Positions 4,491 to 50,189 of a stretch of DNA of 50,706 bases are shown here, piece by piece (positions within the stretch are counted from its first letter, which is position 1; every line of letters starts with the position of its first letter). Source of the DNA: Chiloscyllium plagiosum (lineage: Eukaryota); assembly GCF_004010195.1 (NCBI RefSeq), contig NC_057719.1:44753110-44803815 (forward strand), read 5' to 3'. The translations under genes and the position numbers were made by a program. The notes beneath the pieces are model-generated. The model made no database searches and was not told where the DNA came from. It saw nothing but the letters and a program-made list of their open reading frames with translations.

Positions 4491-5422
4491 GTGAGCATAA
4501 GAGGTATAGTTAGTAAGTTTGCAGATGACACCAAAATTGGAGGTGTAGTGGACAACAAAGAAGGTTACCTCAGATTACAACGGGATCTTGATCAGATAAG
4601 CCAATGGGCTGAGGAGTGGCAGATGGAGGTTAATTTCGATAAATGTGAAGTGCTGCATTTTGGGAAAGCAAATCTTAGCAGGACTTATACACTTAATGGT
4701 AAGGTCCTCGGGAGTGTTGCTGAACAAAAAGACCTTGGAGTACAGGTTCATAGCTCCTTGAAAGTGGAGTCGCAGGTAGATACGATAGTGAAGAAGGTGT
4801 TTGGTATGCTTTCCTTTATTGGTCAGAGTATTGAGTACAGGAGTTGAAAGGTCATGTTATGGCTGTACAGGACATTGGTAAGGCCACTTTGGAATATTGC
4901 ATGTAGTTCTGATCTCCATCGGGAAGATGTTGTGAAACTTGAAAGGGTTCAGAAAAGATTTACAAGGATGTTCTCAGGGTTGGAGCATTTGAGCTATAGG
5001 AAGAGGTTGAATAGGCTTGGGCTGTCTTCCCTGAGTGTTGGAGGCTGAGGGGTGACCTTATAGAGGTTTATAAAATCATGAGGGGCATGGATAGGATAAA
5101 TAGACCAAGTCTCTTCCCTGTGGTGGGGGAGTCCAGAACTAAAGGGCATAGGGATAGGGTGAGAGGGGAAAGATATAAAAGAGACCTAAAGGGCAACCTT
5201 TTCACACAGAGGGTGGTACATGTATGGAATGAGCTGCCAGAGGAAGTGGTGGAGGCATTTAAAAAGGCATCTGGATGGGTATCTGAATAGGAAGGGTTTG
5301 AAGGGATATGGGCCGGGTGCTGGTAGGTGGGGCTAGACTGGGTTGGGATATCTGTCTGTATGGACAAGTTGGACTGAAGGATCTGTTTCCATGCTGTACA
5401 TCTCTATCATTCTCTGACTCTA
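4491..5422 (+). mobile_element. Young 5'-truncated CR1/HER1-like LINE
   Basis: ORF 4491-4847 has SKFADDTKIGG..WQME.N.DKCEVLHFG; FTQRVVHVWNELP; tail catctctatcattctctgactct. Near-identical to 27775-28852 and 19005-19754. Confidence 0.95.
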
Positions 5423-11748: not shown

Positions 11749-12099
11749 ATTAGATTAGATTAGATTAGATTACTTACAGTGTGGAAACAGGCCCTTCGGC
11801 CCAACAAGTCCACACCGACCCACCAAAGCGTATACCACCCAGACCCATACTCCTACAGTTACCCCTTCACCTAACACTACGGGCAATTTAGCATGGCCAA
11901 TTCACCTAACCTGCACATTTTTGGATTGTGGGAGGAAACCGGAACACCCGGAGGAAACCCACGCAGACACAGGGAGAATGTGCAAACTCCACACAGAGAG
12001 TCGCCTGAGGCAGGAATTGAACCCGGGTCTCTGGCGCTGTGAGGCAGCAGTGCTAACCACTCTGCCACCGTGTCGCTCACAAAGCCTGTGGGCGGCACC
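11749..12099 (-). mobile_element. HE1 V-SINE with 8-bp TSD
   Basis: (AGATT)n tail, V-domain and tRNA head on the minus strand; CTGAGAAG at 11741-11748 and 12100-12107. Confidence 0.92.
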
Positions 12100-15356: not shown

Positions 15357-16280
15357 TTAATTCATTCATGGGATGTGGGTATTTCTGGCGTGGCCAGCAT
15401 TTATTGTCCATAGTTGTCCTTAACAAGGTGGTAGTGAGCTACTTTCTACAATCAATGCAGTCCATTTGGTGTAGCTAAATCCACAGTGCTGTTTAGGGAA
15501 GAGATCCAAGATTTTTTTTAAATTAGATTAGATTAGATTACTTACAGTGTGGAAACAGGCCCTTCGGCCCAACAAGTCCACACCGACCCGCCGAAGCACA
15601 ACCCCCCCATTCCCCTATATTTACCCCTTTACCTAACATTACGGGCAATTTAGCATGGCCAATTCACCTAACCTGCACATTTTTGGACTGTGGGAGGAAA
15701 CCGGAGCACCCAGAGGAAACCCACGCAGACACCGGGAGAATGTGCAAACTCCACACAGTCAACCGCCTGAGTTGGGAATTGAACCCGAGTCTCTGGCGCT
15801 GTGAGGCAGCAGTGCTAACCACTGTGCCACCGTGCCACCGTGGTTGACCCAGTGACAGTGAAAGAACAGTGATCTATTTCCAAGTCAGAATGGTGACTGG
15901 CTTGGAAGGGAAGGTGCAGGTGGTGGTGTTCCTATGTTCTGTTGTCCTGGCCCTTCTAGATGGCAGTGGTTGTGGGTTTGGAAGGTGTTGTCTAAAGATC
16001 TTTGTTGAATTTCTGCAGTACATCTTGTATCTAGTACATGCTGCTGCTACTGAGCATCAGTGGTAGACTGTTTGAATGCTTGTGGATGTGGTGACTTAGA
16101 TGGTGTAAAGCTTTTTGAATGTTGTTGGAACTGCATTCATGTAGTCAAGTGGTGAATATTGTATCACATTTCTGACTTCTGCTTTTAGAAGGTGGGCATG
16201 GTTTATGGAGGCAGGAGGTGAAATTACTCACTGCAAGATTCCTACCTCTGACCTCCCCTTGTAGCGGCAGTATTTATGTG
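15357..16280 (-). mobile_element. L2/Crack-like LINE 3' fragment, interrupted by HE1
   Basis: ttcattcatgggatgtggg..ggccagcatttatt..aaggtggtagtgagct shared with 24945-25370 and 43408-45300. Confidence 0.7.
15522..15841 (-). mobile_element. HE1 V-SINE (young)
   Basis: (AGATT)n tail, intact V-domain and head; very similar to 11749-12099. Confidence 0.93.
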
Positions 16281-19004: not shown

Positions 19005-19754
19005 AGTCATAGAGTCATAGAGATGTACAGCATGGAAACAGACCCTTCAGTCCAATCCATCCATGCCGACCAGATATCCCAACCCAATCTAGTCCCACCT
19101 GCCAGCACCCGGCCCATATCTCTCCAAACCCTTCCTATTCATATACCCATCCAAATGCCTCTTAAATGTTGCAATTGTACCAGCCTCCACCACATCCTCT
19201 GGCAGCTCATTCCATCCATGTACCACTCTCTGCGTGAAAAAGTTGCCCCTTAGGTCTCTTTTATATCTTTCCCCTCTCACTGTAAACCTATGCCCTCTAG
19301 TTCTGGACTCCCCGACCCCAGGGAAAAGACTTTGTCTATTCATCCTATCCATGCCACTCATAATTTTGTAAACCTCTATAAGATCTTCCCTCAGCCACCA
19401 ATGCTCTAGGGAAAACAGCCCCAGCCTGTTCAGCCTCTCCCTGTAGCTCAGATCCTCCAACCCTGGCAACATCCTTGTAAATCTTTTCTGAACCCTTTCA
19501 AGTTTCACAACATCTTTCCGATAGGAAGGAGACCAGAATTACACACAATATTCTAAATGTGGCCTAACTAATGTCCTGTACAGCCGCATCATGATCTCCA
19601 TACTACTATGCTCAATGCTTTGACCAATAAAGGAAAGCAAACACCTTCTTCACTATCCTATCTATCTGTGACTCCACTTTCAAGGAGCTATAAACCTGCA
19701 CCCCAAGGTCTCTTTGTTCAGCAAGACTCCCCAGGACCTTACCATTAAGTGTAA
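19005..19754 (-). mobile_element. Young CR1/HER1-like LINE 3' end
   Basis: ORF 19089-19508 KLERVQKRFTRMLPGL..NFFTQRVVHGWNELP; (AGTCATAG)n tail. Confidence 0.95.
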
Positions 19755-20743: not shown

Positions 20744-21941
20744 TGTGACAATACAAGGATAGCAAGCCAAACCAAAACAGCCTCACTATCATTGGCTGGA
20801 TTCACAACACAATGAAATGAAAACATTCAATAACTCTCAAAATTGTTCAATTGTTCCTTACACTTCTTTATGAATAACAGATCTTGAACACTAAATTTAT
20901 AACTTAAACAAAAATTAACATTTTATTAATAATGTAACTTGAGTGGAACAAAGATAAACAACATGGCAGTCAAATTAATATCTATAGTTTATAGTCCAAC
21001 CTTCTCTGATCACAGTCCCGGTACACATAGACAGACAGATACAGTTAAGGGATAAATTAAAGTGAAAATAAATTAATTGGAAATTATAAGTTCAAAGCAC
21101 AGTTTCAAATGATGGCCTTCAGAAATCCTTAGGCAATAAGTCATTCATAAGCCAGTAGAACTGTATAATTCTGAAATCACCAGTTAATGCAAATAGTTCC
21201 AGAAGAATTCTAGAAATATTTACTTAAGCTTACAGACTGAGATTCTTTTCTCAGAATATTCAACAATTCAATGTCTGGAGAGAAACTGGATAACGAGCAA
21301 AACAAAACAGCCCAGTTTTCGGACCTTTTCAAAATAAATCACATCTCCATCTGCCAAACCCTGTTAGAAATAGTTTTCTTTTTGTTTTTGCTTTTCAATC
21401 AGCATTTCCTGTGGTTGACAAAAATAGAAATTGCTGGAAAAACTCAGCAGGTGTGGCAGCATATATGGAGAGAAGTCAGAATTAACATTCTGAAACATTA
21501 ACTCTGACTTCTCTCCACAGATGCTGGCAGACCTGTTGAACTTTTCCAATCAATTCTATTTTTGTCTCTGATGTACGACATCCACAGTTCCTTTGGATTT
21601 TATTCTCTGTGGTTGGCTGGTTAGCACCGGTCCTCCCTTGATTAACCAATTCAATATCCAGCCAGCTGCCAGCCCTGACCATGGTAACATCTTAGTATCA
21701 ATCCGTCCACAATGTTCTTAGATCAATACTTAAGTTGCATTATTTTCCAGGCCAGTTCCCAATAGAAAACATCTGTCTTGGTTCTCTTCCCTTTTAAAAC
21801 AAGCTGCTGTTCAAAATTTAATTCTTAACTTGAACTCTCAGTTCCAAACCAAAAGAAAATGAGAAAAATAAAAGAAAATAAATAGAAGAAAAATATAGAT
21901 GGTTTCAAAAACACAAGCAATGAGTTCAAACTCAAAGATCA
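20744..21941 (-). mobile_element. Possible old solo LTR
   Basis: TGTGAC start, possible ..CA end with ACAT on both flanks, LTR-like composition (reverse AATAAA near 20922, ccatggtaac). Terminal inverted repeat is poor. Confidence 0.25.
21415..21600. repeat. Palindromic Penelope terminal-repeat-derived element
   Basis: gacaaaaatagaaattgctggaaaaactcagcagg..agaagtcagaattaac versus ttaactctgacttctct..cctgttgaacttttcc..tctatttttgtc form inverted arms of about 75 bp. Confidence 0.75.
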
Positions 21942-27774: not shown

Positions 27775-28852
27775 TCAAAGGTAGAAGACAGAGGGTGGCG
27801 GTGAAGGGTTGTTTTTCAGACTAGAGGCCTGTGACCAGTGGAGTGCCACAAGGATCGGTGCTGGGCCCTCTACCTTTTGTCATTTACATAAATGATTTGG
27901 ATGCGAGCATAAAAGGTGCAGCTAGTAAGTTTGCAGATGACACCAAAATTGGAGGTGTAGTGGACAGTGAAGAGGGTTACCTCAGATTACAACAGGATCT
28001 GGACCAGATGGGCCAATGGGCTGAGAAGTGGCAGATGGAGCTTAATTCAGATAAATGCGAGGTGCTGCATTTTGGGAAAGCAAATCTTAGCAGGACTTAT
28101 ACACTTAATGGTAAGGTCCTAGGGAGTGTTGCTGAACAAAGAGACCTTGGAGTGCAGGTTCATAGCTCCTTGTAAGTGGAGTCACAGGTAGATAGGATAG
28201 TGAAGAAGGCATTTGGTATGCTTTACTTTATTGGTCAGAGAATTGAGTACAGGAGTTGGGAGGTCATGTTGCGGCTGTACAGGACATTGGTTAGGCCACT
28301 GTTGGAATATTGCGTGCAATTCTGGTCTCCTTCCTATTGGAAAGATGTTGTGAAACTTGAAAGGGTTCAGAAAAGATTTACAAGGATGTAGCCAGGGTTG
28401 GAGGATCTGAGCTGCAGGGTGAGGCTGAACAGGCTGGGGCTGTTTTCCCTGGAGCGTCGGAGACTGAGGGGAGATCTTATAGAGGTTTACAAAATTATGA
28501 GGGGCATGGATAGGATAAAGAGACAAAGTCTTTTCCCTGGGGTTAGGGAGTCCTGAACTAGAGGGTATAGGTTTAGGGTGAGAGGAAAAAGATATAAAAG
28601 AGACCTAAGGGGCAACTTTTTCACGCAGAGGGTGGTACGTGGATGGAATGAACTGCCAGAGGATGTGGTGGAGGCTGGTACAATTGCAACATTTAAGAGG
28701 CATTTGGATGGGTATATGAATAGGAAGGGTTTGGAGGGATATGGGCCGGGTGCTGGCAGGTGGGACTAGATTGGGTTGGGATATCTGGTCGGCATGGACG
28801 GGTTTGACCGAAGGGTCTGTTTCCATGTTGTACATCTCTATGACTCTATGAC
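27775..28852 (+). mobile_element. Young CR1/HER1-like LINE RT 3' part
   Basis: ORFs 27831-28175 (SGVPQGSVLGPL..YINDL..KFADDTK), 28176-28391 and 28578-28769; (CTATGACT)n tail. Confidence 0.95.
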
Positions 28853-28955
28853 TAAATACAGAGAATGCTGGAGAAACTCAACAAGTCAGCAGCATCTATG
28901 AAACTCCAAAGTAACAAAGTCAATGTTTTGAAGCTGGTATGATTCTTCTTCAGAA
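28853..28955 (-). repeat. Penelope terminal-repeat-derived fragment
   Basis: gaatgctggagaaactcaacaagtcagcagcatct..ttcttcttcag; same motif set as 21415 and 45375. Confidence 0.6.
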
Positions 28956-29772
28956 ATGGTATGTTGGCCTTTATTCCAAAGGAAACAGAGTAGAAATATA
29001 GGGAAGTTTTACTAAAACTTGATAAGGCACTACTTAGACCACAGCTACAACACTGTGAACAGGTTTGTCTCTTTATTGAGGTAAATGTGTTCTGGCATTG
29101 AAGGTAGTTCAAAGAAGATGCACTCAGATAATTCCAGAGATAGAGGGATTTTCTTATGAGGAGAGGTAGAGTAGGTTGGAGTTTAGGAAAATGATTAAAA
29201 CGTAAGATTATTAGGGGACTTGACAGGGTAGATATGAATAAGTTGTTTACTTTACTGGTTGAGTCTAAGAGAAAGGGAATCATGTCAGAGTAAGGTGTTG
29301 CCCATTTAAGACTGAGTTGAGAAGGATCCTTTCTCTCATAAGGTAGTGAATCCATGAAATTCTTTACCACAGAGAGCTGTCAAAGTTGGGTTGTTAAGTA
29401 TATTCAAGGCTGAAATAGATTTTTAATCAGTAAGGGGATCAAGGGTTATGTGAATAGGGCATGCAGATTATCAGATTAGATTTATTTAAGATATCTGGTT
29501 GGCCTAGATGAATTGGAGCAAAGGGTCTGTTTCCGTGCTGTCCATCTCTATGACTCCATCTGCCATGATCTCATTGAATGGTAGAGCAGACTCAATAGAC
29601 TTAATGGCCTATTTCTGCTTCTACTTCTGGCTTCGTAGTCCTGATCAATGAAAGCATTAATATTGAATGTGGAGATTTTAGCACTTCTAAACATTGAAGA
29701 CTCAAGAAAAGCTTTTCACAGGATTTTCAACAGAATGCAACCAACTCTCTCTGTGAGAATGTTCCTCAAATT

Positions 29773-30637: not shown

Positions 30638-30924
30638 AACTAAAAACTACCTGCTCGTCCATACAATGGCAGAATTAGACACATAAAAGTGTCTATTACT
30701 ATTTTAGTAAAGGAAGGCATCAGACATCCCTGGTGATTACTTGAAATGAATGGTAGCCTCTCCAAAATGAATGTATCTCCTCCTGCATTGGAAGTAAGAC
30801 TTCATTACAAAATTATTGTCTGTGAGTCTTTTATTTGTGCAATCTTGTACCTACCAATAAAAACATGGTCCCAAAATTCATGAAGCTATCTGAAGCAATG
30901 GTATTTATAGGGGGGAAATCCCCA

Positions 30925-31020
30925 AAGAACTGCAGATGTAGGAAATCTAAAACAAAACCAGACATTGTTGGAGAAACTCAGCTAATCTGGCAGCATCTAT
31001 TCTTTGTCTCTAGCAATTTA
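30925..31020. repeat. Short Penelope terminal-repeat-derived fragment
   Basis: aagaactgcagatgtagg..gttggagaaactcagctaatctggcagcatct. Confidence 0.55.
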
Positions 31021-31064
31021 CTTTTATAGGGAACTTTGCTATTATTAAAGTATGTCACAAAATA

Positions 31065-32660
31065 TCATGATTTGGAGATGCTGGACTGGGGTGTATAAAG
31101 TTACTAATCACACAACACCAGGGTAAAGTCCAACAGGTTTGATTGGACGCACTTGCTTTCGGAGCGCTGCTCCATCGTCAGGTGGTTATGGAGGACACAA
31201 TTGTAAGACACAGATTTTATAGCAAAAGTTTACAGTGTTATGTAATTGAAATTATACATTGGAAAATACCTTGATTGTTTGTTAAGACTCTCATCTGTTA
31301 GAATGACCATGATATTTTCATTTCTTTCATATGTAATTCACAAAACTTTTTTTAAAAGTTACATTCTCAGGTTAACTGTAACAGCGCAGATAAGATGTTG
31401 AGATGTTGAAGATGTTAGCCTCCTGCTCAACTCATCGACCGCCAGTTCCGACGTGCCACAGCAAGGAACCGTAACGACCTCCTCAGGAGTCAGACACGTG
31501 CTCCAACCGACAGGGTACCCTTTATTGTCCAGTACTTCCCAGGAACTGAAAAACTACGCCATGTTCTTCGTGACCTGCAACACATTATCAATGAGGATGA
31601 ACACCTCACCAAGATCTTCCCCTCACCTCCACTGCTCACCTTTAAACAACCACCAAACCTCAAACAGATCATTGTTCATACAAACTGCCCGACTTTCAGG
31701 ACAACTCCATACAACCTTGTCATGGTAGGCGCTGCAAGATGTGTCAGAGTGTGGACATAGATACCACCATTGCGCGTGGGGACACCTCCCATCTTGTACA
31801 TGGCAGGTACTCATGCGACTCAGCCAATGTTGTCTATCTTATACGCTGCAGGCAAGGATGCCTGCAGTGTTCCCTCCCAGTTGGGGAACACTTCAGTAGT
31901 CCAGAACATTCGACCTCGGACCTTCGGGTGACCATCCTCCAAGGTGGACTTCAGGACAGGCAGCAGCGAAAAGTGGCCGAGCAGAGGCTGATAGCTAAGT
32001 TGGGTACCCATAGGGAGGGCCTCAACCGGGACCTTGAGTTCATGTCACATTACAGGTGACCACCATTGCACTATACACATACATAGACACTCCTACGCGT
32101 GCGCACACACACACTCCTATACACAGACACTCACACACACTCCTAACTCACAACCCCCCCATCCCAGACAGACAGACACACACACGTTTGTGGGGTGAAT
32201 CTGTACTTGCAGAGTTACATCGTACTTTGCTCAAAAACTGCATGAATTCATGTAAGACTCTGTTAACTCATTTTTTTTAGATTAGAATCAGAATCAGTCT
32301 AAACATTATGGCACAGATAGGGAACACAGGGGCTAACACCTTCAACATCTCAACATCTTATCTGGCTGTCAGCAATTATTGCAGTCAACCTGAGAATGTA
32401 ACTTGTAAAAAAGATTTTGTGAATTACATATGAAAGAAGTTAAACTATCATGGTCATTCTAACAGATGAGAGACTTAACAAACAATCAAGATATTTTTCA
32501 ATGTATAATTTCAGTTACATCACACTGTAAACTTTTGCTATAAATTCTGTGTCTTACAATTGTGTTCTCCACAACCACCTGATGAAGGAGCAGCGCTCCG
32601 AAAGCTAGTGTTTCCAATTAAACCTATTGGACTTTAACCTGGTGCTGTGTGATTTGTAAC
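31065..32660 (+). mobile_element. Penelope-like element 3' part: truncated GIY-YIG region flanked by ~330-bp inverted terminal repeats
   Basis: ORF 31739-32059 YSCDSANVVYLIRCRQGC..VGEHFS..AEQRLIAKLGTHREGLNRD; arms ~31096-31428 and ~32327-32660 are reverse complements. Confidence 0.9.
32576..32610 (+). ncRNA. Minimal type I hammerhead ribozyme motif (Penelope-associated)
   Basis: CAC-CUGAUGA-A-GGAGC(AGC)GCUCC-GAAA-GC-UA-GUG: intact core, 5-bp stem II, CAC/GUG stem I, palindromic AGCU in place of stem III. Confidence 0.75.
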
Positions 32661-32887
32661 AGAGAATAATGTTTGGCTCCTGAAGATGTTTCAAGCTATT
32701 CTGTGTTATTTTATCAATGGTCCACAATATAGAAGTGTTGGATTGCTGGTTTGTAGCTAGACTTCATTAACTTCAAGAATAACAGAAAATATAGTAATAT
32801 CTCATTCCTTGAATCTTCTGCATGTGTGTAACAACAGACACTGAATAGTGCAAATCTATGTCCTTATCTTGGCTGTAGTTAAGACTC

Positions 32888-33081
32888 GAAACTGAAAAAT
32901 GTGTTGCTGGAAAAGCGCAGCAGGAGAAGGAGAATTGACATTTTGGGCATAAGCCCTTCTTCAGGGCTTATGCCCGAAACGTCGATTCTCCTGCTCCTTG
33001 GATGCTGCCTGACCTGCTGCGCTTTTCCAGCAACACATTTTTCAGCTCTGATCTCCAGCATCTGCAGTCCTCACTTTCTCC
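32888..33081. mobile_element. 194-bp palindromic Penelope-derived mini-element with 15-bp TSD
   Basis: CTGTAGTTAAGACTC at 32873-32887 and 33082-33096; perfect 33-bp inverted repeat 32892-32924/33013-33045. Confidence 0.88.
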
Positions 33082-35331
33082 CTGTAGTTAAGACTCCTAC
33101 ATATAGTGCCAGTTCTCAATTTATCCTGTCTCTGACTGACACCAGCAGGTCTTAGGTAGGCCTATGGAGTTGGGGATATTCCCTCTACAACAGGTTCAGG
33201 AATCATGTACAGTTGTGGAGCACTGATATAATAAGAATCACACAAGAAAATGAAGAAAACCATAAAAATCTTCAGGCCAAGGTTCTAGTGCTTGGACTAA
33301 TCTGATGGAATTCTACAGTTTAGCACCAAGTGACTCCTCAGATCTACATGATGATTTGCTATGTGCTGCACAAATATAGCCTTTATATTGGTAAAAGCGG
33401 TTCACAGTCACTACATAAGGAAGAAACAATGATGAAAAAGATGATGGGGAAGGTCTAGGTTGTGCTGTGTGGCCAGCTGCCAAAATTGTAAAGCAAACAA
33501 TAACTGAGAGATTCTTCTTTGGAGAGCCTTCCTCTGCCCATCATTTGACATAATTCTTCACTAAACATCTGTATGTTTTTGACTATTACTTCCTCATTTG
33601 TCTTTGTCCTATATACCTTTGATTATGAAGAGCAACTGCAAAACCAAGCTAAAAAACGTGTTTTATTGTGCACATTGTAAAACTTCTCCATCTTCGTCAT
33701 GGCAAAATGAAAATATTTTACTGCAATTCCCTTGTAGAGGACCACTGCAGTACATTCATGCCTCTGTACTAATGAACACATATAATGCACTGACAGTTGT
33801 AGGAGCCTTAGAGATGGGAAGTTACTGATCATCCACAGAGAGCACTAGAGCTGACGACAGATGACAACAGTGGGTGATTTTGAGCAGTTCTGTGCCTGGA
33901 GAAGCCTTGCTAATTTTAACGTTGGTATTTGGCCTAATTCCATTTCAATTATTTTATCATTGTGTTCTCAGGGCTGTGCAAACTTTACTTGCATCTCCAT
34001 CATTGCTATTTATTATACTTCTCCAGAGTCTTCCCGGTTTCTAACTCTCCAAATTTATTTTGAATGCTTATGTACTCGCATGCTTGCCACCCAAATCTGT
34101 CTCCAATTGTTTGGAATGGTGAGCTTTATTTCCATAGTTTACTCAATAATTTTTCAGAAATTTATGGTTGTTTCTCCAATAGTGCTTTAATTTCAGCCAA
34201 ATTATTTGTTTCCATTCCAACAGTTTCATTAATGTTGTGTTCTCTAGATTCAAACCTGGAATTTCACCACTTGCCAACATGGATGTAATTAAACCCTTCT
34301 CCACTGCTCAATTTAAGCTCTGCATAAGGAAACAGATGCTATTTTGGATTAGATGAGGCCTATTTGCTTGCAATATCATTTCCTTGGTCCAGGAATGACT
34401 TGGGTATTAATAATACAAACCATTTCCTCTGGACTAACTCTGCAACCAATCATCCAGAAAATTGCTGAAGAAGAAGATGCCGATACATTTCCACTCTGGA
34501 GGTCTTCTTTTCAAGTTCTTCTCCTCCTCTATGTTCCCAGCACTACAGCTCATTCTCTCGTCTGGAAAAAACCCTGCTTCTAGCCCGAGCCGTGGTTGAA
34601 CCACTTCTATTTACTCATTGTATTGTAAGAAAACAATTATAATCCACTTAGAGCTTCCCACAAACTATAATGAGCAAAAATGGACCCTCACTGAGAGGGG
34701 AAATACATTCAACTGTTCATAATTTACCAGTTCATTGTGTACTACTTTGATACAAATATGCACCATATCATTGTTGGAGTCAAATTATCGATTCTTGGGG
34801 CTGTGGGCATCAAGATGATTCAGATTCCCTTGGCACACCCTTTTGAGATATATTTAAGTTTACCACAATAGTGAAAGCTGAGGTAATGCTCTCTGAAGTC
34901 AGGATTAATTAGGTTCGATTGCTCCAATTGGATCAGTGCAGCATACTCTGACGTTCTTGGGATGTAACAGATAAACATCATGTTGTAGAGGCATCAGTTC
35001 CCTAATTGGGGATATTTCACAGGGGCCCCTGGGTATAGATCCCCTGACTATTATTATCATGGTTGACTTAACGCAGTTGACATTATGACTGAAGAGAACA
35101 TCTGTCTTCAATTATAATTGGTTTTAAATTGCAAAGACAAAGAATACCTATCAAACATCTGCCCTCTCCAACTACATTACATTTAGCTGAAAGTCTACCT
35201 GGAACCAGGTGTACCCAACTCTGTAAATAAAATCTATTGATATTCTAGTTCATCCTTCTTTCAGATTTCCTGGCTTCAGAATGTTGTTGAATCTGAACAA
35301 AACATCAGTAAAATTATCTGACAATCATAAT

Positions 35332-35633
35332 GGGTGGCACAGTGGTTAGCACTACTGCCTCACAGCGCCAGAGACCCGGGTTCAATTCCCGCCTCAGGCA
35401 ACTGTCTGTGTGGAGTTTGCACATTCTCCCCGTGTCTGCGTGGGTTTCCTCCGGTTGCTCTGGTTTCCTCCCACAGTCCAAAAATGTGCAGGTCAGGCGA
35501 ATTGGCCATGCTAAATTGCCTGTAGTGTTAGGTAAATGTAGAGAAATGGGACTGGGTGGGTTGCTCTTCGGAGGGTCAGTGTGGACTTTTTGGGCTGAAG
35601 GGCTTGTTTCCACACTGTAAGTAATCTAATCTG
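35332..35633 (+). mobile_element. HE1 V-SINE with 8-bp TSD
   Basis: Full head, V-domain and tail; ATCATAAT at 35324-35331 and 35634-35641. Confidence 0.93.
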
Positions 35634-36889
35634 ATCATAATCTGGTCTGAGGTTGAGTTTGACGATGTCATGAGGACCAGCGCTCTGAATATTTCAAAAA
35701 ACAGATGTTCTGTGGAAAAATGAAAGATGTAAATCTGTTTCTCAACAGGAAACCTCTGTGTGATACACGTTTTCTGTAAAGCATATGAACAGGACTAGAC
35801 TTATAGAAAATGTTTCCTGTGCTCAGAATGCAGCATCATGTTATGTGGTGTTTGAACAGATTGATAAGAATTTATCTACATTGCGAAAGCTTTAATTCGT
35901 CAGTGTGTAGACTGATTTATGTTATTAGCCTGAAGTGTTCATATGTTCTTCAATATTCTGATGCTCCTCTTCCCTGACTGTCAAATCTTTTTACTTTCAT
36001 TGAGATGGTATGGGATGAAATATTTAGGTTGTGCACTTTCTGTTGCCTTGCAGGTATGAAGCAAAATGCACTTAAGGCAAGTTAGTTTTAAATTCACCAA
36101 CAGGCTGTATTTCAGACTTGAGAAAATATGATTTTAGACATATTACTGATAAAAACAACATTTCATTTCAGATCTGTGTGAGTCTGGTGAGTCATCTAAC
36201 TCAACTTAAGTGATCTTGAAGGGGAAAACAGGCAAACAGTGTGAAATAGTGCTACAATGCTGACAGGCAGTCACGTGAAATGATGCCTATTTCCTTTTCC
36301 CTAGTGAGATTTCAATTTAATGTAAGCGGATGGTTCAGCATATCTTAAATTCCTGTTGGAGCCTAATGGCTGACTGCCATCCTTCCAGCAGCCATAGTTG
36401 CCGCAGAGAACTATCATCACCAGCTAAGGCTTTGAATGTGTCCAAGCAAATAATTTCTGTCAGCAAACTTTCAAGTCAACAAAGGCTTTTTGCCCAACAC
36501 AAACTAAATTGCCTTTCAGTGGCTTAAAACTTGTAAGCTTTAACCTTAGAAAAAAAACTTTTAAAATAATACATTTGGATTAACTTAATCTTTAACTTTA
36601 AAATTTTGAAATCGAATTTTCAAATCCAAAATCCACTGGATTACTATCTGACATTAGTGAAGTCCAGCAGAATCCTCTGAATTTGAAGACATACATGAGC
36701 GAAAGATCACTTGGAAACTTCAAGTTAACTTCTTAGTTAACCAACAGGAAACAACCAGGAATTTTAAAACGGACTCTTCGGTAGACAAAAAAACTCACGT
36801 TGCCATGGCAAACGTGGAAAAGACTCTTGGCCAAATTAAAAGCCAAGTGCTTTACTTTTTTTAATTGGATGGACCTCTGTTTAACATTG

Positions 36890-38681: not shown

Positions 38682-38820
38682 TTAAGTTCAAAATCAGATA
38701 ACACCAGGTTATAGTTCAACAGGTTTATTTGGGAGCACTAGCTTTCGAGGCACTGCTCCTTCATCAGGTGGTTGTGGAGCAGGACCATGAGAATTTATAG
38801 CAAAAGGTTGGCAGTGTCAC
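38682..38820 (-). mobile_element. Penelope terminal-repeat fragment containing a hammerhead motif (38736-38770)
   Basis: Same sequence family as the arms of 31065-32660; minus strand reads CAC-CUGAUGA-A-GGAGC(AGU)GCCUC-GAAA-GC-UA-GUG. Confidence 0.8.
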
Positions 38821-39021
38821 TCCAAATCAAAAGATTAAATAACAGAGATCTATCTGTCTGATTTTAATGTCTGGGGGTAGAACTAACCTCAATCTCCTAC
38901 AAGGTTTTACCCTTCTTGTATCTCTTCCTATTCCTGTCCACTTTGTGAGTTATCTTTGGCAGTATCCTCTTGTCACTCTAAACTTTATGGAGTAGATTTT
39001 TAAGCCACTGGAAAAATATAA

Positions 39022-40160: not shown

Positions 40161-40842
40161 AAGATCTGGAGGAGGGGAAAAGCACAAAAAGACAAGGATG
40201 GAATCAGCATCAAATTAGGCACAAAATAAGTAAGTGCTAAGAGAGCAAAGGGGCGGCCTTGAGATGCAGCTGGTTGAATCTGTGAGTTGGGTGCCTGTCT
40301 TCATACACAATCAGTCCTGACAGCAGAGTTCCAATGATAGGTGCTACAAAGTGCAGCAGTGATGTGCAGAAGTGTGTAAGTGTGCCATGAAGGTGCGGTG
40401 AAGCTGGTATGTGACAGATTCCAAGGTCCATGGATAGGGTTAGGAGGTCCATGCAATTTCTGCCCATGCAGTGTGTTTGCAATGTTGCCACCCTGTGTCC
40501 AAAGTGGTGGACTGTAGTAGCAAGCGATGAGCTGAAGCTCCTAGGTAACAGATCTGACTTTCATGTTAGGAACTGTTGCCATTTAGTTTCTATCCAACAG
40601 TTGAGAGAATGGGAAATTAATGAGGTATGACTAGGTCACAACGCAATATTAATTCGTGCAAATAGACCACTTGCTGCTCAATAGTGAAAATCTCATCTCA
40701 CCATTCAAAACTTATTGGAAAATGGGACCTCTTTGTCTTAACGTCAAGAAGTTCCTAGCTGTCTATCTTATGGTATTTTCACAATCTTCTCATCAATGCC
40801 CACATTGTTCAGTGTCTGGGAAAACTCCATCCCCAGTAACTA

Positions 40843-41154
40843 CAGTCAGTTCTGCTATAACACTGTAGTTCTCGTGCAATTCCATGTTATAAGAAAACCA
40901 TGTAATAGCACATCATTTCCTGATGAAGGGTTTATGCACGAAACATTGATTCTCTGCTGCCTGACCTGCTGTGCTTTTCCAGCACCACACTCTCGACATG
41001 TAATAGCACAACACCATTTAAACTAAAGGGGCTGGAATCACATTATAACCAACACATGTGTTAAAAATTCGAGCTTTAGAAAGTGTCCCCAATTTGTCAA
41101 TCGTGTTATAGTGAATTTGTGTTAATGAAATGTGCGTTATAGCAGAATGACCTG
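40843..41154. mobile_element. Tc1/mariner (Tigger/pogo-like) MITE
   Basis: TIRs CAGTCAGTTCTGCTATAAC / GTTATAGCAGAATGACCTG flanked by TA on both sides; second copy at 43519-43721. Confidence 0.85.
40913..40996 (+). mobile_element. 84-bp hammerhead-containing Penelope-derived insertion with 14-bp TSD
   Basis: CATGTAATAGCACA at 40899-40912 and 40997-41010; insert contains CTGATGA-A-GGGT TTAT GCAC-GAAA. Confidence 0.85.
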
Positions 41155-41735
41155 TACCAAGAACTTAGAATGACAATATCAACATGGCAATGGAAAAGCA
41201 ACTACCCAGAAAAATCAATTACCTAGTTTCAAGTTGCCTTATTTTATCTAATCAAAGTGCCATGATTATCTGGTGCATTTGGTATCTATTTGGATGCAGT
41301 CAGTAAACATTTTGATAGAACATATTTTGTAGGGGTTATAACAGTGCCTGAAACGTTGCATACATAGATCTTTGTTGCCAGAATGTAAGTAATACTGTGA
41401 TGTGTTGTTTTTATATTTTTGTGACAACTAACCATAAGCAGATATTTCTCATAAATTCTGATGCCACAACTCACCAAATGACGGGTGTGTAGTGCTCTGT
41501 TAGTTATTTTCTTCAGAAAAATGATGTAAAGGCACCTCCCTTAAAAAGATGGTTAAAAACTATGCTAAAACAAATTAAAAGTGCAGTAGTAAAAATCTTG
41601 TTAAAGAACCACTTGTTTAAAAAAATCCAGCAAAAAAATCAATAAAACTGAAGAAACTTTTATGAATAGTTAACATTGTCACTTGGGAATACTAGGATCA
41701 TCACAGTGTGGTGAAACCTGCAAATAAATCCTTGA

Positions 41736-41998
41736 GCTGAAAAATGTGTTGCTGGAAAAGCGCAGCAGGTCAGGCAGCATCCAAGGAGCAGGAGAATCGA
41801 CGTTTCGGGCATAAGCCCTTCTTCAGGAATGAGGAAGGTGTGCCAAGCAGGCTAAGATAAAAGGTAGGGAGGAGGGACTTGGGGGAGGGGCATTGGGAAT
41901 GCGATAGGTGGAAGGAGGTTAAGGTGAGGGTGATAGGCTGGAGAGGGGCTGGGGCGGAGAGGTCGGGAAGAAGATTGCAGGTCAAAATCCTTTTCTTT
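41736..41998 (-). mobile_element. Penelope 3' terminal fragment with intact hammerhead motif (41794-41830) and 14-bp TSD
   Basis: AAATAAATCCTTGA at 41722-41735 and 41999-42012; minus strand AUUC-CUGAAGA-A-GGGC(UUAU)GCCC-GAAA-CG-UC-GAUU. Confidence 0.85.
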
Positions 41999-42994
41999 AA
42001 ATAAATCCTTGATCCTGTTTTCAATAGTACAACATATGATGGCTTCTGCAAACACATATTAATATGGGACAGCACATGTTCCACTGAATGTTAACAGAAT
42101 TCTTTAAACTGTAACTTTCTTTTCATAATAAACATCCTTTTACCTTTGCTACAAGTCACTTTCAAATATTTGTTAGCTGTCCTTTCTCTTAAGCTTTCTC
42201 AAGTGAATTGTTTAATTTTTTCGAGTATTTAGATTTTTCAGGTTCTCTAAGAATCTGTGAATAAACTAACATTGTAATTTTGTGCATAGTGTTTATTAAA
42301 TGTTAGAAATACATAAAAAGAAAATTGTTGTTGTAGCTATTACATTGAAAATTTATCTTTAAAGCTATAAGTATCTTTCAATGATAGGAAGATGACTGCT
42401 CTTAACTGAACGTTTTTATAAGGTCCAATTGTGTTCAAAACAAATGCTGTCCATAAATAAGAATATTTATACTCATTGGCACTTCTAAATCCTAATTTTT
42501 TTTCCCAGTCTTTATGTTCTAAAACTGTTCTGGTCAGCAGCTATTTGGCATCCATTTTGTGTACAATTCTCCTTCAATGATATCATACACATAAGGATGG
42601 CTGGAGCAGCTCCACACGTTCCTATTATAATCGTGGTATTTACTAATAAATTGAAATTCCTTAAAAGAATCCTTATTGAAGTAAGTGTGATTTAAAGAAA
42701 ATAACTTTGTCAGAAATTAAACCTGGAATCCATATTTTTTCAAATATTAATGATGAAGCTTTATTGTGATTTGTTGTTGTTGGCTTTGCTGTGATTTGTT
42801 ATTATTGCAGGTTTAACGTCACTCTGGACAGCCAATTATGTCTGTGTTCTGAGGTAAAGACTAAAGTTTATATTGAAGTAGAAGCGATATATAGCAGGCA
42901 GTTTTCTTGACTTTTCTTTGTGGACATGACCAGACAAAAGTACAGTAGACCTCATGGAATCCACCCCAGGAAGGAAATAAATTCTATTTCAACT

Positions 42995-43407: not shown

Positions 43408-45300
43408 TTCTTTGGGAGTCACTGGTAAGGGCCAGAATTTCTTACCTATCCATAATTGCTTTTGAGACTGTGATGGTTTGCTGCCTTCTTAATCTCTGCA
43501 GTCCATGCAGTGTCAGTACAAGAAGTTCTTCTGTAACGCGATGGTTTTGTTCTTGTGCAACCCTGCATTATAGAAAATTCAGGCTTTAGAAACACTGCTT
43601 AAAGTGTTGGTGATGCAATCATGTTTTTAAAGTTTGTGCTTTAGAAACAATGTCCCCAATTCATCAATCGTGTTACAGCAAATTTGTGTCAATGAAATGC
43701 ACACTATAGCAGAATGATCTGTACACTCAGAGTGCTGTTAGGGAGGGAGCTCCAGCATTTTCCTTCAGCAGCAGTAAAAAGATGGCAATCTTGGAATCTT
43801 GGCTGACAGAGTGAGGAATCTTGTCCACCAGCTGGACAGCTGGTAAGAGACCCACACTCCCCTCACATTGAAGTCCTAATGATTCTAACATTTAGCCCTC
43901 CCTGTGCACGAATGTTCCCATGCATCTGTTGCTCTTGTCATTAGGTAATTAAAGTCATGAGTTTCAAAGATGCTATCAATGGAGCATTGGTGAATTGCTG
44001 CAGTACATCTTATAAATGATATACACTGCTTTCACAGTATGGTGGTGGTGGAGGAAGTGAAAATTGAGGTGCTAGATTGAGTACTAATGAAAAGGGCTGT
44101 TTTGTCCTGGATGCTGATAAGTTTCTTAAATGTTGGTGGACCTGTACTCATGCAGGCTGCTGGACAGCATTCCATTACACTCCTGACTTGTGCCTTGTAG
44201 ATGCTGGACAGACATTGGCGATGGGAGGTGAGTTACCCACTGCAGAATTCCCAGTCTTGGGCTTGCTCTTATAGTTGTAGTGTTTATATGGCAGATCCAG
44301 TTCAGTCAATGGTAATCCCCAGCTGCATGATAGTGGCAATTTCAATCATGGTAAATGTCATTGAATGTGTTGAGGAGATGCACACATTCTCTCATTGGAG
44401 ATGATAAATGCCTGGCACTTGTATGGTATGCATGTCACTTGCCACATATCAGTACAGTTCTAAATTTTGTTCAGAACTTGCTGCATATGGACACAGGCTG
44501 CTTCAGTATCTCAGGAGTTGGGAATAGTGCTGAGCATCGTACAATCATCAATGAGCACACTTTTGATGATAGAGGGAAGGTACTTGATGAAGATGGTTGT
44601 GTCTAGGACATTACCCTGAGGAAATCCTGCAGAGGTGTCCCAAGGATGAGACAACTGACCTCTAACAATCACAACCATCTTCCTTTGTGCTAAATATGAC
44701 ACCAACCCGCAAAGAGTTACCAGTTTCGTCTCCTCTCTCAAATTCATCTGTTTCTTCCATGTTTGGCCAAAGTTGTGAAGGGATCAAAAGCTGAGTGAAC
44801 CTGACAGAACCCAAAAAGAGCCGCAGTGAGCAGTTTCTATGAGTAGATGTCATAAAATAGCACTGTTGATGACACTTTTGATCACTGTTCTTTTGATCAA
44901 GGGGAGACTGACACGACAATAATTAGCTGGGTGGATCTCTCCCACATTTTGTGGACATCTCACACTAGGGGTAGATGCAAATACCGTAGCTGTACTGGAA
45001 GAGCATGGTTAAGGATACAGTTATTGTTGGGGCACATTTTCAATGCTGTTGCTGGGCTTTTTGTATGACACTTAGCTTTAGCAGAATCTGGTGCTTCATT
45101 GACATTATATGAAGTGAATTGAATTGGCTGAAGACCAATATCTGTGCTTCTCCAGACCTCAGAAGATGGTGAATCCATCATTTCCTTGGCACTCTGTTTA
45201 AAGATGATTGCAATGCTTCATCCTTGTCTTTTGTTGGGCTTCCTCATGATTAAGGGTGGGAATATTTTTGAAGATTTCTCATGCTAATTGTTTAATTGTC
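43408..45300 (-). mobile_element. Long decayed L2/Crack-like LINE
   Basis: ORF 44511-44747 SAGFPQGNVLDTTIF..DDCTMLSTI (RT PQGS and xADD remnants); 3' end shared with 15357 and 24945. Confidence 0.75.
43519..43721. mobile_element. Second Tigger-like MITE, inserted at a TA in the Crack-like LINE
   Basis: TA|CAAGAAGTTCTTCTGTAAC..CTATAGCAGAATGATCTG|TA; internal gtgtccccaatt..caatcgtgtta shared with 41083-41110. Confidence 0.8.
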
Positions 45301-45374: not shown

Positions 45375-45522
45375 AGAAGCGAAAGATCTGCGGATGCTGT
45401 AAATCAGAAACAAAAACAGAAGTTGCTAGAAAAGCTCAGCAGGTCTGGCAGCATCTGTGAAGAGAAATCAGTGTTAACCAAAAGGGTTAAATCAAAGGGT
45501 CCAGTGACCCTTCCTCAGTTCT
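45375..45522 (-). repeat. Penelope terminal-repeat-derived fragment with a broken hammerhead
   Basis: ctcagcaggtctggcagcatct; minus strand CUGAGGA-A-GGGUC(ACUG)GACCC with GAAA missing. Confidence 0.7.
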
Positions 45523-47464
45523 TGTTTTGGTTCCTTGGAATGAGAGGAGGCACCACTTTGTATGAAGTGCTGATGTACTTCATACCATGAACCATGGTAC
45601 CATGTACCATGAGCTTTGGCTTTAGATTTTGTTTTATATGCCCTTACCTGTTTTACTGGAAATTTCACTTTAAATTACAGTTATTCTTTCTCTTTATTAA
45701 AATTGTCTGTTGCTGTGATGCTTCTTGGCCACAAGTAATGCTACTTACTTCAGTCCTTTACTCTTTACAATATTCATTCCTACAAATCTCAGAAAAAGAA
45801 GTTAAGGATCTCATTGGTGACCCCCAATCCAACTCCATCTTCACTGTCTTTCTATCTTTACTGAAAATCAAAGGGGCTCCAGGGTAAAGTGCTTAAGCCA
45901 GATGTACTTTCTCCATTTACCCTAGCACCTGGCTTCAACTCTGTTGAAAATTCTGTGAATTGTTTTGGAGCAGTCTACCACTGAGCAATGTGACAAGACA
46001 ATCAATGTAAATGGATTACAAGGACAATTTCACTTTGTTATCTAAAATGTGGTAGTAAACAGATGAATCATTTTTAAATGAGTCTACTTTTGCCTGAGCT
46101 CTACCCTCCTTGACTTTTGAACAGCCCTTGGATTGGTCTGATTCCAAATCAGGTGGGAGTCTTGTTAAAATGTTTAAATTGGAGGCTTTGCATAGGACAT
46201 TGCACAAAGGTCTTTAAGGGGTTTAAATACAGAATTGCCAGAAACATTGCACTAAATTTTCTGACTCAACAAAAATTTCTCCATATTCTGCCAACCATAC
46301 ACTGCCATTCCCTCCACCCACACTTCTAGGAGGAAGAAACCAACCAATATGAGTTGCCCAGCCACTCCATCATGGCATTTTCTCTGTGGTACACAAGATT
46401 CATAGAATGCCTGCAGCACTGAATAGTATAATTAAACTTGTGCTCACTCCAAATCTCTGCAAGACCTACCCAGCTAGTTCTATTCCACTGCCTTTGTCTG
46501 TAGCCTTTCATTTTCTTTCTCCTTAGATAATTACCCAATTTTCCTTTGAACTCCATGATTGAATTTGCCTTCACAACATTCTCAGTGTCCATATTTGAAT
46601 CAGTCCTTGTGTATAAAGATTTTTCTTTTTATTACTCCAGCTCTTTAGTGAGTCAATTTAATTTTTTTTTGTTTCTAGACCCTTCCCTCTTTAGGATCAG
46701 TAACACCTCCACCCATCCTAGCTACTTTGTCAGATTCCTCAGGATTTTGAAAACCTCAAAAGCTCTTTGAAAAGCTCTTTTCAATCTGCTCAATCACTCC
46801 AGCTTTGCTAATCTACCCACATAGCTGAAGTTTCTCAATTCTGGAAATGTTCTCATAAAACTTTTCTTCATCATCTTGAATGCCTTCACATTCTTCCTAA
46901 AGTGCAGTGCTCAGAATTAGACACAGCTCCATTTGAAACTGAACATAAAGTATCTCATAAAGATTCAAAATAATTTCCTTTCTTTCACATATCATGCCTC
47001 TGCTAGGTGTTTAATTCACTGTTTTCTCAACGTGTCCTACCATTGTGAATGACTTGTTCATAAACTTCTCCCCACTTCTGCTCCAAACACCTCACATTTT
47101 CTTGAGAACTATACACTTTATTTTTTATGGAATTCTCTTGTTTTTTTTAACCAAAATGAATCATTTGACACTTTTTGCTCTAAATGTTATCTGCTGAGTG
47201 TCTGCATTAGCCTATATTATCTTGGATTCTACGACAATTTGTCTCACAGTTCACCGTGCCTTAAAGTTTGTGTCATATGCAACTTTTGAAATTGTGCCCT
47301 ACTTACTCAAGTTATTGTTATTAGTGAAGAAAAACCGGGATCCTAATAATGACCCATGGGAATCCCCACTATATACCATCCTTCAATCAAAATACAACTA
47401 TTCATCATTGTTTTCTGTTTCCAGTCATTCACTGAACTTCATGCTGCCACAGTCCCCTTTATGC

Positions 47465-48184
47465 TGTTGTGGGGAACATCACCAGCCTTCGAGTCAGAGT
47501 GGGGGTTCATCAACAGAGCTTATTGTACAAGGAAATATCGGAGCTCCAGGGAGGGAAAGATACCAACAGCACAGTGGTCAGCTGTGAGTCTTCTCTCAAC
47601 GTTGAACATATGTCAAGATACTTTCATACATTTTGTGATATAATAGGTCAGTAATGAGGTTACTGTCTTTGTAACATAGTTTTTTTGTTGTAAACATTGC
47701 AGAATCATTGATAGTTTCGATGCAGTCATTGTCAGTTTCAGTGCAGCCTTTGTTAATTTCAGCACGATCGTTGTCAGTTTCAGTGCAGACATTGTTAGTT
47801 TCAATGTCTGCATGGAAGTCCATTGCTGTAGTAGTGGATGATAATCGCTCTTCCTAAGAAGGACAACAACTGCAGCCCTGGCTGCTAGCACTTTATATTG
47901 AGTCCATATCAAATTGTTGGCTGGACCCAGACACTTCGGCAGGCAGTATACGCTACTCATGTGTATTCTCTCCCCCACCCGCCTTAAGATAATCAACTAG
48001 GTTGTGAGTGCAGTGTACTGGCGTTCTGGTGGGCTGAGGCCTTATCTGTGTTTGCTCTGCTGTCTCTCTCCATATTGTGGTCTGGCGGCCATTTTTTGTG
48101 TCAAGTGGCCAACTTAGGGCCCAGCAGCCATCTTGTGTGTCTGTATGCCGAGTGTCACCCTACCCCGTGCCATGTCCCACTTCA
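47465..48184 (-). mobile_element. Solo LTR (720 bp) with 4-bp TSD
   Basis: ATGC|TGTTGTGGG...CCCACTTCA|ATGC; removing it restores the flanking CR1; minus-strand TATA (47891-47900) and AATAAG (47519-47524). Confidence 0.8.
47710..47814. repeat. Five 21-bp tandem repeats
   Basis: gatagtttcgatgcagtcatt/gtcagtttcagtgcagccttt/gttaatttcagcacgatcgtt/gtcagtttcagtgcagacatt/gttagtttcaatgtctgcatg. Confidence 0.85.
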
Positions 48185-48857
48185 ATGCCATGGTCATTGG
48201 ATTTGCTGACAAGGCTGTTAATTAAATGCCTTTGGAATTCCAAGGACACAAGATCAAGTGCATTATTCTCATAACTCTCTCTGTTACTTCATTAAAAACC
48301 TCAGTCAATTAATTAAACACTATCTGTCCTCAACAAGTAGTATTGGCTTTCTTTATTTAAACTGCATTTAAGTGGCTGTCAATTTTGTCTCGGATTTGCA
48401 AATTTACCTACTTTAGGTATAGTCAGACGTTTTAATACCTTGCCTTTGTCAATTTTAGCATATTAAATGTTTCACCTCCTGTTTCATTGCAAAGTTATCA
48501 GTATTATTTTGCTTATTAAAGACAGTTGCAAAATATTCATTTAGTACCTCTCTAATGCAGTCTGTATTCATGCATATATACCCTTTTGATCTCAGATTCT
48601 TTTGACCTTCTGTTACCACCCTTTTACTCTTTCTATGCCCATAGAAGACTTTTGAATTCCTTTTTAATGATGGCTGCTACTCTCAAACATTCTTCTTATT
48701 GCTCTTATTTCTTTGTTTTCCTTCCCTATGTAATGTCAACTTGATGTCTGTCATGGACACTTTTTCTGCTTCATCTTACTCTCTACCTCTTTCATCTTCA
48801 GCACAGAGATTACCACTCAAGAGAATTTAGATGGTCAGATTTTCTGTGCTGTATGAC

Positions 48858-49168
48858 AGTGGCACAGTGGTTAGCACTGCTGCCTCACAGCACCAGAGAT
48901 CCAGGTTCAATTCCTGCCTCAGGTGACTGTATGTGTGGAGTTTGCGCATTCTCCCTGTCTGCGTGGGTTTCCTCCGGGTGCTCTGGTTTCCTCCCATAGT
49001 CCAAAAATGTGCAGGTTATGTGAATTGGCCAAGTTAAATTGCCCATAGTGTTAGATGAAGGGGTAAATGTAGGGGAATGGGTCTGGGTGAGTTGCGCTTC
49101 GGCAGGTCGGTGTGGACTTGTTGGGCTGAAGGACGTATTTCCACACTGTAAGTAATCTAATCTAATCA
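48858..49168 (+). mobile_element. HE1 V-SINE
   Basis: gtggcacagtggttagcactgctgcctcacagc head, V-domain, (AATCT)n tail. Confidence 0.92.
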
Positions 49169-50189
49169 AAGAAAGAGATGGCCACTCTGTCAGGAGATGT
49201 TAGAAAAAAACTATCTTTGGCTGAAGCACTTAGGAGTTAAGACCTCAGGTGCCAAAACCACAATTATTTGCAAACATTGCTATTTTGTGGAAGCAATTAG
49301 ACATGACTTCCATATATGTATATATGACTGAGAAGATGAATAACTCAGAGGAATTTAATAGCCACTTCTAAAATACATTACAGGATGTTTCTGACAATAT
49401 ACAAAACACCTCAGAGACGATAACATCTTAAGAGATACCCATAGCATAAAGAAGGACTTTAATGGACAGCGGTGGCTTTTAAGAACAGTTATGGTGCATT
49501 GAACAGAACATTTTCACTGCCTTTCCAAGAACAGATGAGAATTATTCATCTGTGATGAGAATACTCGCAACTACCCTGAGTATGTCCAAAATACTGGTGT
49601 GTAATCAAGAATAGGCAGAAATTGTCTCTTTGAAGAGTGTCTGCAACATTAAGACCCCTTTCGATGCCATCACAGGCAGAAACAGATGAGGTAGCTATCT
49701 GCCAGGTTTCCATGGAGAACACATAGATTTGTGATGGAAACCATCTTCTCTGTCTCCTGGGCAGTGATCTGGATGTTCTAGCAGCTGCTTTCACCACACT
49801 GAGTGATGGGATGCCTTACTAGTCCCATACACTTTCTACTGCAGAGTGAGGGGGGTTAATAAATGCTGCATTAGTCTGAGAAACAGTAGTGACATTCTTG
49901 TCACAATGATCTCCTGTTGTTGAGGGTTCCCTCAGTTTGTTCAACAATCTGCACAGGAGCAACACCCATGCACCATACAGTGTTAGAGACAGTGATGTCC
50001 TGAAGAATTGTGTCTTTGCATCTGTTCCTTCAACAATTTGAAATCATTCAAGATAATCTTCCGCAGATCAAATCCCAGGATCTCTATAATAGGAAATTCA
50101 GCTTTCATGTCAGATGCTCCAAATGTGCACTGGTATTGACAGCCTTGCAGTTGCTATGTGCCACATGTTGAACAATTGCCTCTTTTAGT

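Follow-up and report, generated by a model that had tools for sequence, protein, structure and literature searches.

An 84-nt insert that carries little more than a hammerhead motif and lies between two copies of a short perfect repeat raises the question of whether so small a sequence is a mobile unit in its own right or a piece of a larger element. We addressed this question in a 50,706-nt stretch of Chiloscyllium plagiosum DNA (contig NC_057719.1, positions 44,753,110 to 44,803,815 of the forward strand), hereafter the window, which contains the insert (copy A) and two sister copies (copies B and C; Table 1). Public runs, i.e., two sets of DNA contigs (X2 and X12) and one RNA run (X21), were mapped on positions 40780–42080 at 80% likeness.

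Table 1. Positions in the window of copy A, its host, its sister copies, and a second Penelope-like element (PLE) family.
Feature	Position	Strand	Basis or remark
Host MITE, TA-flanked, with CAG-starting terminal inverted repeats	40843..41154	.	214 bp once the insert and one TSD copy are subtracted
Left TSD, 14 bp	40899..40912	+	Exact repeat and chance test
Copy A, 84-bp PLE end-module retrocopy (most probable reading), tail-less	40913..40996	+	Alignment to copies B and C
Helix I 5′ strand, overlapping initiator-like YYANWYY (A at 40915)	40913..40919	+	Motif scan
Decayed minimal type I hammerhead	40920..40947	+	Manual mapping on minimal hammerhead features of PMC4209133
12-nt internal deletion junction	40954..40955	+	Comparison with family; adjoins repeated TGCT
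Right TSD, 14 bp	40997..41010	+	Exact repeat
Copy B, 263 bp, tail-less, intact minimal hammerhead (C3 at 41826)	41736..41998	-	172 nt upstream of core
Copy B TSD, 14 bp	41722–41735 and 41999–42012		
Copy C, inverted pair joined inside hammerhead	32888..33081	.	TSD of 14–15 bp at 32873 and 33082
Sister MITE without insert, diverged middle	43519..43721	.	Sequence comparison
Second PLE family, with a terminal repeat in inverted orientation, a truncated body, and a terminal repeat bearing a minimal hammerhead at 32579	31100..32662	+	

Insert, Duplication, and Host MITE

The exact 14-mer CATGTAATAGCACA occurs only twice in the window, on either side of the 84 nt of copy A, and is non-extendable. 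Exact repeats of at least 13 nt at a spacing of 40–400 nt number four in the window, three of them flanking members of the copy A/B/C family and one belonging to a minisatellite, while repeats of at least 14 nt averaged 0.14 across 100 Markov simulations; the perfect 14-bp TSD that an earlier note on this DNA had described around an 84-bp insert is thus an exact repeat beyond chance expectation. The terminal inverted repeats of the host MITE are ~21 nt long with TA dinucleotides outside, as in Tc1/mariner-pogo elements; its assignment as Tigger-like, over other Tc1/mariner groups, is our assumption. The MITE host and the insert-free sister reported in the same note are both present. Alignment of the sister MITE to the 14-mer target, however, needs a gap and gives no more than 7 matching positions out of 14; the sister, being so weak a control, was rejected as proof of an empty site. 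The host MITE shows high depth in the public runs, where the insert is bridged in contigs from other MITE copies, 41012 being linked to 40897 (three in X2 and six in X12) or to 40871 (eight in X2 and six in X12). From these joints, a single target copy in the other MITE copies is likely.

The resemblance of the 14-mer to a MITE sub-terminal motif (9–10 of 14 matches elsewhere in the MITE), together with joints for which the intervening letters are not given, might suggest that the duplication is part of the MITE consensus, or that it arose by chance. We give this reading practically no weight, since the repeat is perfect, yet other MITE copies differ at 19–28 of ~145 letters, since their contig joints span the insert site, and since copies B and C carry TSDs of similar size.

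Relative to the hammerhead-core C3, copy A spans −7 to +76 (+88 with 12 deleted nt counted). The 12 nt absent from copy A at 40954/40955 are present in copy B and in the direct arm of copy C, and loose ends carrying these missing letters stop before 40955 in all three public runs (at least 1211 contigs in X2, at least 1211 in X12, and at least 306 reads in X21), with an agreement among the loose letters at 40955 of 0.64–0.66. Depth in the bin to the left of the deletion was, as an upper bound, 2.5% and 2.7% of that in the bin to its right in the DNA runs and 8% in the RNA run, which makes the deleted 84-nt version a rarity within the family. The insert is 84 nt long because copy A lost 12 nt that the majority of the family keeps, and the family unit measures about 96 nt, or about 130 nt with a tail. 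By itself, the insert carries little weight, since the repeat is abundant and this is a single, decayed member of it.

Hammerhead Motif of Copy A

Minimal hammerheads of PLEs have been described to have a base between positions 9 and 10.1, a G10.1-C11.1 pair, and a palindromic 15.2–16.2 segment (PMC4209133). Free folding of copies A and B did not yield a hammerhead fold, and the structure was therefore mapped by hand; an Rfam search matched no hammerhead, whether across the window (E ≤ 1) or within 40880–41900 (E ≤ 10). In copy A, CTGATGA (40920–40926) lies 7 nt from the insert start and is followed by an extra A, by stem II (40928–40939), and by GAAA (40940–40943), in agreement with the positions and the 7-nt offset claimed previously. 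Stem II pairs as G-C, G·A, G-C, and U-G, so that the one stem II mismatch noted previously, together with the change of CGTCG to CATTG, is accompanied by one wobble. The family helix III palindrome ACGU reads ACAU in copy A, which would leave two C·A mismatches in a homodimer; helix I offers C-G, U-A, U·U, and U·U (2–3 pairs), and loop 3 is absent. In copy B, by contrast, four pairs of stem II are retained, as is the palindrome. As mapped, the copy A ribozyme is probably dead. With U at N17, its cut is predicted after 40947, 35 nt inside the insert, and self-cleavage therefore did not set the ends of copy A; given type I topology, a monomer released by cleavage would run from one cut to the next.

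Sister Copies B and C

All three family copies in the window are flanked by TSDs of 14–15 bp (64–79% AT); copies A and B are single, copy C is an inverted pair, and no copy is permuted (0/3). The direct arm of copy C is identical to copy B at 86 of 86 positions and is the only arm with a tail, of 35–36 nt (33047–33082). The 3′ ends fall at two sites relative to C3, i.e., about +88 to +90 (copy B, and copy A with its deletion counted) and +125 (direct arm of copy C); loose ends with the tail as consensus were found behind 40997 in both DNA runs (at least 1332 and at least 1318). The earlier note, which had overlooked the 12-nt deletion and the two sister copies with different ends, had placed a Penelope-type tail in the insert; the optional tail sits on copy C and is absent from copy A. 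Its discrete 84-bp unit does not hold up either, as the length results from a deletion, the short arm of copy C is identical to the long copy B, and the ends lie away from the cut site. No coding sequence linked to the family was seen in the window, and pattern scans for family copies in viral contigs, metagenome contigs, and prokaryote genomes returned 0 loci.

The inverted arm of copy C differs from copy B by four substitutions and a 17-nt deletion, which falls in the same segment as the 12-nt deletion of copy A. This arm ends at −1 and meets the direct arm via AGG/CCT around a 5-nt loop, as would a self-priming fold-back. At the 5′ tip of copy B (41983–41998, minus strand), a purine-rich run of ~15 nt is unlike the pyrimidine-rich repeat behind it and is possibly filler added at integration. 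A contig of a second organism (run X12) covers 41130–41760 with 10 differences and reaches 25 nt into copy B, which suggests that copy B is common to both organisms, although this reach is below the 31-letter bridging standard.

Preferred 5′ Boundary at the Hammerhead Front Edge

Depth on copy B drops 4.65-fold (X2), 9.28-fold (X12), and 7.87-fold (X21) from bin 41792–41835 to bin 41836–41879, i.e., from the core (to −9) to −10 to −53, and only 1.0- to 2.1-fold per step in the following bins upstream; summed contig depth does not equal copy number, and ends were read from pooled contigs rather than copy by copy. Among the loose ends listed, at least 632 (X2), at least 644 (X12), and at least 237 (X21) fall at 41830, which represents ~3 of every 100 partly aligned contigs (at least 632 of 20,166 and at least 644 of 20,908). 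Loose letters on the 5′ side agree at 0.31–0.33 in the DNA runs (0.31 at 41830 in both), as would unrelated, AT-rich flanks. A further peak inside the core, at 41821 (at least 601 in X2 and at least 202 in X21, among those listed), adjoins a position where copies differ and may be a clipping artefact. Rather than being random, the 5′ ends of the family favour the hammerhead front edge; the earlier note had named ends scattered at random as the finding that would speak against its proposal, and the ends instead cluster. Purely random truncation was rejected on the depth step and the pile-up of loose ends, and a splice acceptor was rejected as the cause of the 5′ edge because the nearest AG lies ~25 nt upstream of the copy B core. 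Five TSD-bounded copies that keep the core, three of the A/B/C family and two of other families, have 5′ ends at −1, −7, −16, −61, and −172, three of the five within 20 nt.

Position 41830 (−4) is the A of the only YYANWYY, which we take to be an initiator consensus, in the 177 nt of copy B scanned, against a window background of 1.2 per 100 nt. The match was made post hoc with a low-information motif, and four of the seven window hammerheads scanned lack it. In both DNA runs, the first loose letter at 41830 is G on the element strand, where copy B has C; in the RNA run, this letter differs, and the loose letters, which agree at 0.39, are partly element-like. In copy A, the start lies 2 nt upstream of the initiator-like A, and an extra G is absent. 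An untemplated G has been reported to mark capped templates in L1 and SVA (PMC4859970), and the Penelope start site has been placed in the pLTR (PMC2377424); in D. virilis, this site precedes helix I by ~120 nt, and the interval contains an intron (PMC2377424, PMC4209133).

In the RNA run, a polyA single-cell library of which ~2% was covered, 3823 reads mapped to both strands and 97% of them ran into unlike sequence, which fits copies carried within host transcripts. No site with many molecule starts or ends was found in these reads; a polyA library is blind to small or circular RNAs.

Other PLE Families and Repeats in the Window

The second PLE family (Table 1) shows the parent architecture within the same genome. 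Its body contains a GIY-YIG-type reading frame (31646–32059) with a C-X4-C-X2-C motif that resembles the Neptune linker; Atlas look-alikes of this frame carry PF01541 in 18–22% of members, and a direct Pfam scan gave no GIY-YIG match. Hammerheads of this family were mapped at 31181 (−), 32579 (+), and 38767 (−), and a family copy at 38686–38828 has a 10-bp TSD. Older PLE-end stubs of a further family are located at 45378–45534, 21418–21606 (element E), and 30913–31022, with TSD candidates of 11, 9, and 9 bp, respectively; no TSD candidate was found for another older stub at 28850–28960. Weak Rfam matches were dismissed as chance, the match to mir-7094 corresponding to the palindrome of element E. 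A frame at 1–507 (−) resembles the part of the PLE protein just before the RT, contains IKPADKGG, and has no Pfam match; it is presumably PLE-derived. The DKG motif, which is named for the PLE protein (PMC8557442), is one basis for this label. Neither of the two PLE coding remnants in the window was recognised in the Pfam scan.

The window also contains a 21-bp minisatellite of about five units (47708–47812), three LINE RT-like fragments (4428–5415, 19005–19753, and 27900–28853), which are presumably CR1/L2-like, and five members of a SINE-like dispersed family with (TTAGA)n tails (848–1170, 11750–12072, 15518–15834, 35332–35636, and 48856–49170).

Origin of the Insert

We conclude, with a probability of about 0.95, that the insert is a retrocopy of a PLE end module. 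A minimal hammerhead (intact in copy B and decayed in copy A), an optional tail and an inverted, 5′-truncated arm (both in copy C), and TSDs in 3/3 copies are the features of endonuclease-bearing PLEs. A one-sided tail of 30–40 bp and an inverted arm have been described as PLE hallmarks (PMC8557442, PMC3846280), which the one-sided 35–36-nt tail and the inverted arm of copy C match. The RT has been reported to start internally at two sites, with uncleaved RNA as its main template (PMC11167929); the two 3′ ends found here fit such starts at two sites bracketing the tail, and copy A is therefore tail-less. Solo minimal hammerheads of truncated PLEs, tails, and inverted arms are already described.

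The source would be the terminal module (the 3′ end of the pLTR) of an endonuclease-bearing PLE. By analogy with established PLE biochemistry, the GIY-YIG domain would nick AT-rich DNA, and the RT would start internally on uncleaved RNA, at one of the two sites that bracket the tail. In most copies, the RT would then extend over ~95 nt until it reached the 5′ end of an RNA with its first base at the initiator-like A, four bases ahead of the core, after which the short cDNA would be joined to the target with a 14-bp duplication. The hammerhead would be a passenger that defines neither end, its decay and the 12-nt deletion having come later. Taken as a whole, with the run-off at the RNA start, this account has somewhat better than even odds in our view. 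The run-off step is weakened by the possibility that the same clip and part of the depth step come from a sister subfamily with a different base at −5 or with less than 80% likeness upstream; the start of copy A, the peak at 41821, the loose letters of the RNA run at 41830, and the upstream start site in D. virilis also count against it. Of the retrozyme-like unit mobilised by Penelope RT/GIY-YIG that had been proposed in the earlier note, the part that stands is a non-coding PLE end with a TSD, for which these enzymes are most likely responsible.

The same element and enzymes could also have produced the 5′ boundary by a stall or fold-back of the RT at the hammerhead structure or at a bound protein, i.e., at a hot spot of premature termination during copying of the 3′ terminal repeat of a long transcript. 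Heavy 5′ truncation of PLE insertions is known (PMC8557442), and solo minimal hammerheads have been ascribed to truncated PLEs (PMC4209133); in the window, the cDNA of copy C stops at −1 with a fold-back on AGG/CCT next to stem II, and the fold-back of element E likewise falls in the hammerhead region. One of the loose-end peaks, at 41821, is internal to the core, and the 5′ ends are spread from −1 to −172. An RT moving 3′ to 5′, however, would meet the stems from downstream and should lose the core rather than keep it, and the main depth step lies upstream of the core, with one peak on the initiator-like A; we consider a stall rather unlikely as the origin of the boundary. A SINE-like lineage, in which copies of 95–130 nt need no long elements, being transcribed from an initiator of their own within the copy and mobilised again in trans, seems improbable to a further degree. 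The bulk of mapped depth ends at the hammerhead edge, as such a lineage would have it, the short unit bears both RT start regions as well as the initiator-like motif, there are known non-autonomous derivatives of PLEs that resemble autonomous families at the 3′ end (PMC8557442), and PLE protein is able to act in trans (PMC3846280). On the other side, the identity of the short C arm to the long copy B implies a shared master in this three-copy sample, the 84-nt deleted form is rare, and nearly all RNA reads continue into unlike sequence. The ends seen in the mapped runs are preferred and not fixed, and three copies were compared.

A true non-LTR retrozyme, of which the monomer would be freed by self-cleavage, circularised, and reinserted, is very improbable. 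A type I hammerhead motif, a coding capacity of nil, and a TSD of >4 bp are shared with retrozymes (PMC7229834), and pLTR-derived retrozymes with consensus lengths down to 51 bp have been reported (bioRxiv 10.64898/2026.07.22.740005). Against this, the window contains no tandem copies and no permuted copy of the three, the cut falls after the first 35 nt of the insert, the 3′ end is not a cut site, and the hammerhead is minimal rather than canonical; for copy A, the retrozyme reading is largely refuted.

Retrocopying of a PLE end module, if generally completed by run-off, suggests a broader proposal, which we put forward tentatively and with the odds against it: most PLE insertions here may be complete run-off products, like integrated retroviral strong-stop cDNA, in which the RT travels from the internal tail sites of the leader to a capped start overlapping helix I. 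If this were true, each stub would record a transcription start (through a cap-derived G) and would carry an initiator, a ribozyme, and RT start sites, and stubs could be the seed for SINE-like units and tandem retrozymes. What role the hammerhead plays in PLEs, and where cDNA synthesis begins and ends, are questions on which the family pattern bears; the uncut ribozyme that copies retain at their 5′ tip is consistent with uncleaved RNA being the template, as found in vitro.

Comparison with Known Systems

Like solo minimal hammerheads as described in PMC4209133, the family has a CUGANGA core, an extra base between 9 and 10.1, a G10.1-C11.1 pair, a palindromic 15.2–16.2 segment in the intact sisters, a short helix I, and dispersed single motifs; unlike them, its stem II has only 4 bp, and copy A is decayed. 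The pile-up of 5′ ends at the front edge was found here and does not figure in the available portion of the account of Cervera and de la Pena 2014 (PMC4209133), and a literature search of mainly open-access sources found no report of 5′ ends clustering at this edge. Copy A differs from a canonical type I hammerhead, which has a helix I of ~6 bp and a helix III with stem and loop.

Non-LTR retrozymes, which are defined by tandem units and circular RNAs in the portions of PMC7229834 and bioRxiv 10.64898/2026.07.22.740005 drawn on here, are likewise non-coding and pLTR-related, with a type I hammerhead and a TSD of >4 bp, and also occur as solo monomers; in contrast to retrozymes, the family has no tandem array in the window, a minimal hammerhead, and ends that are not set by cleavage. 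Poseidon of Anolis, as reported in PMC11167929, shares two discrete 3′ ends downstream of the hammerhead and an uncleaved template. The family resembles canonical insertions of endonuclease-bearing PLEs (PMC8557442, PMC3846280) in its one-sided tail, its inverted pair, and its TSDs; it differs from them in that the copies are 84–263 bp long and no coding parent was seen in the window, and its TSDs measure 14–15 bp, compared to 8–10 bp in the rotifer PLE examples described.
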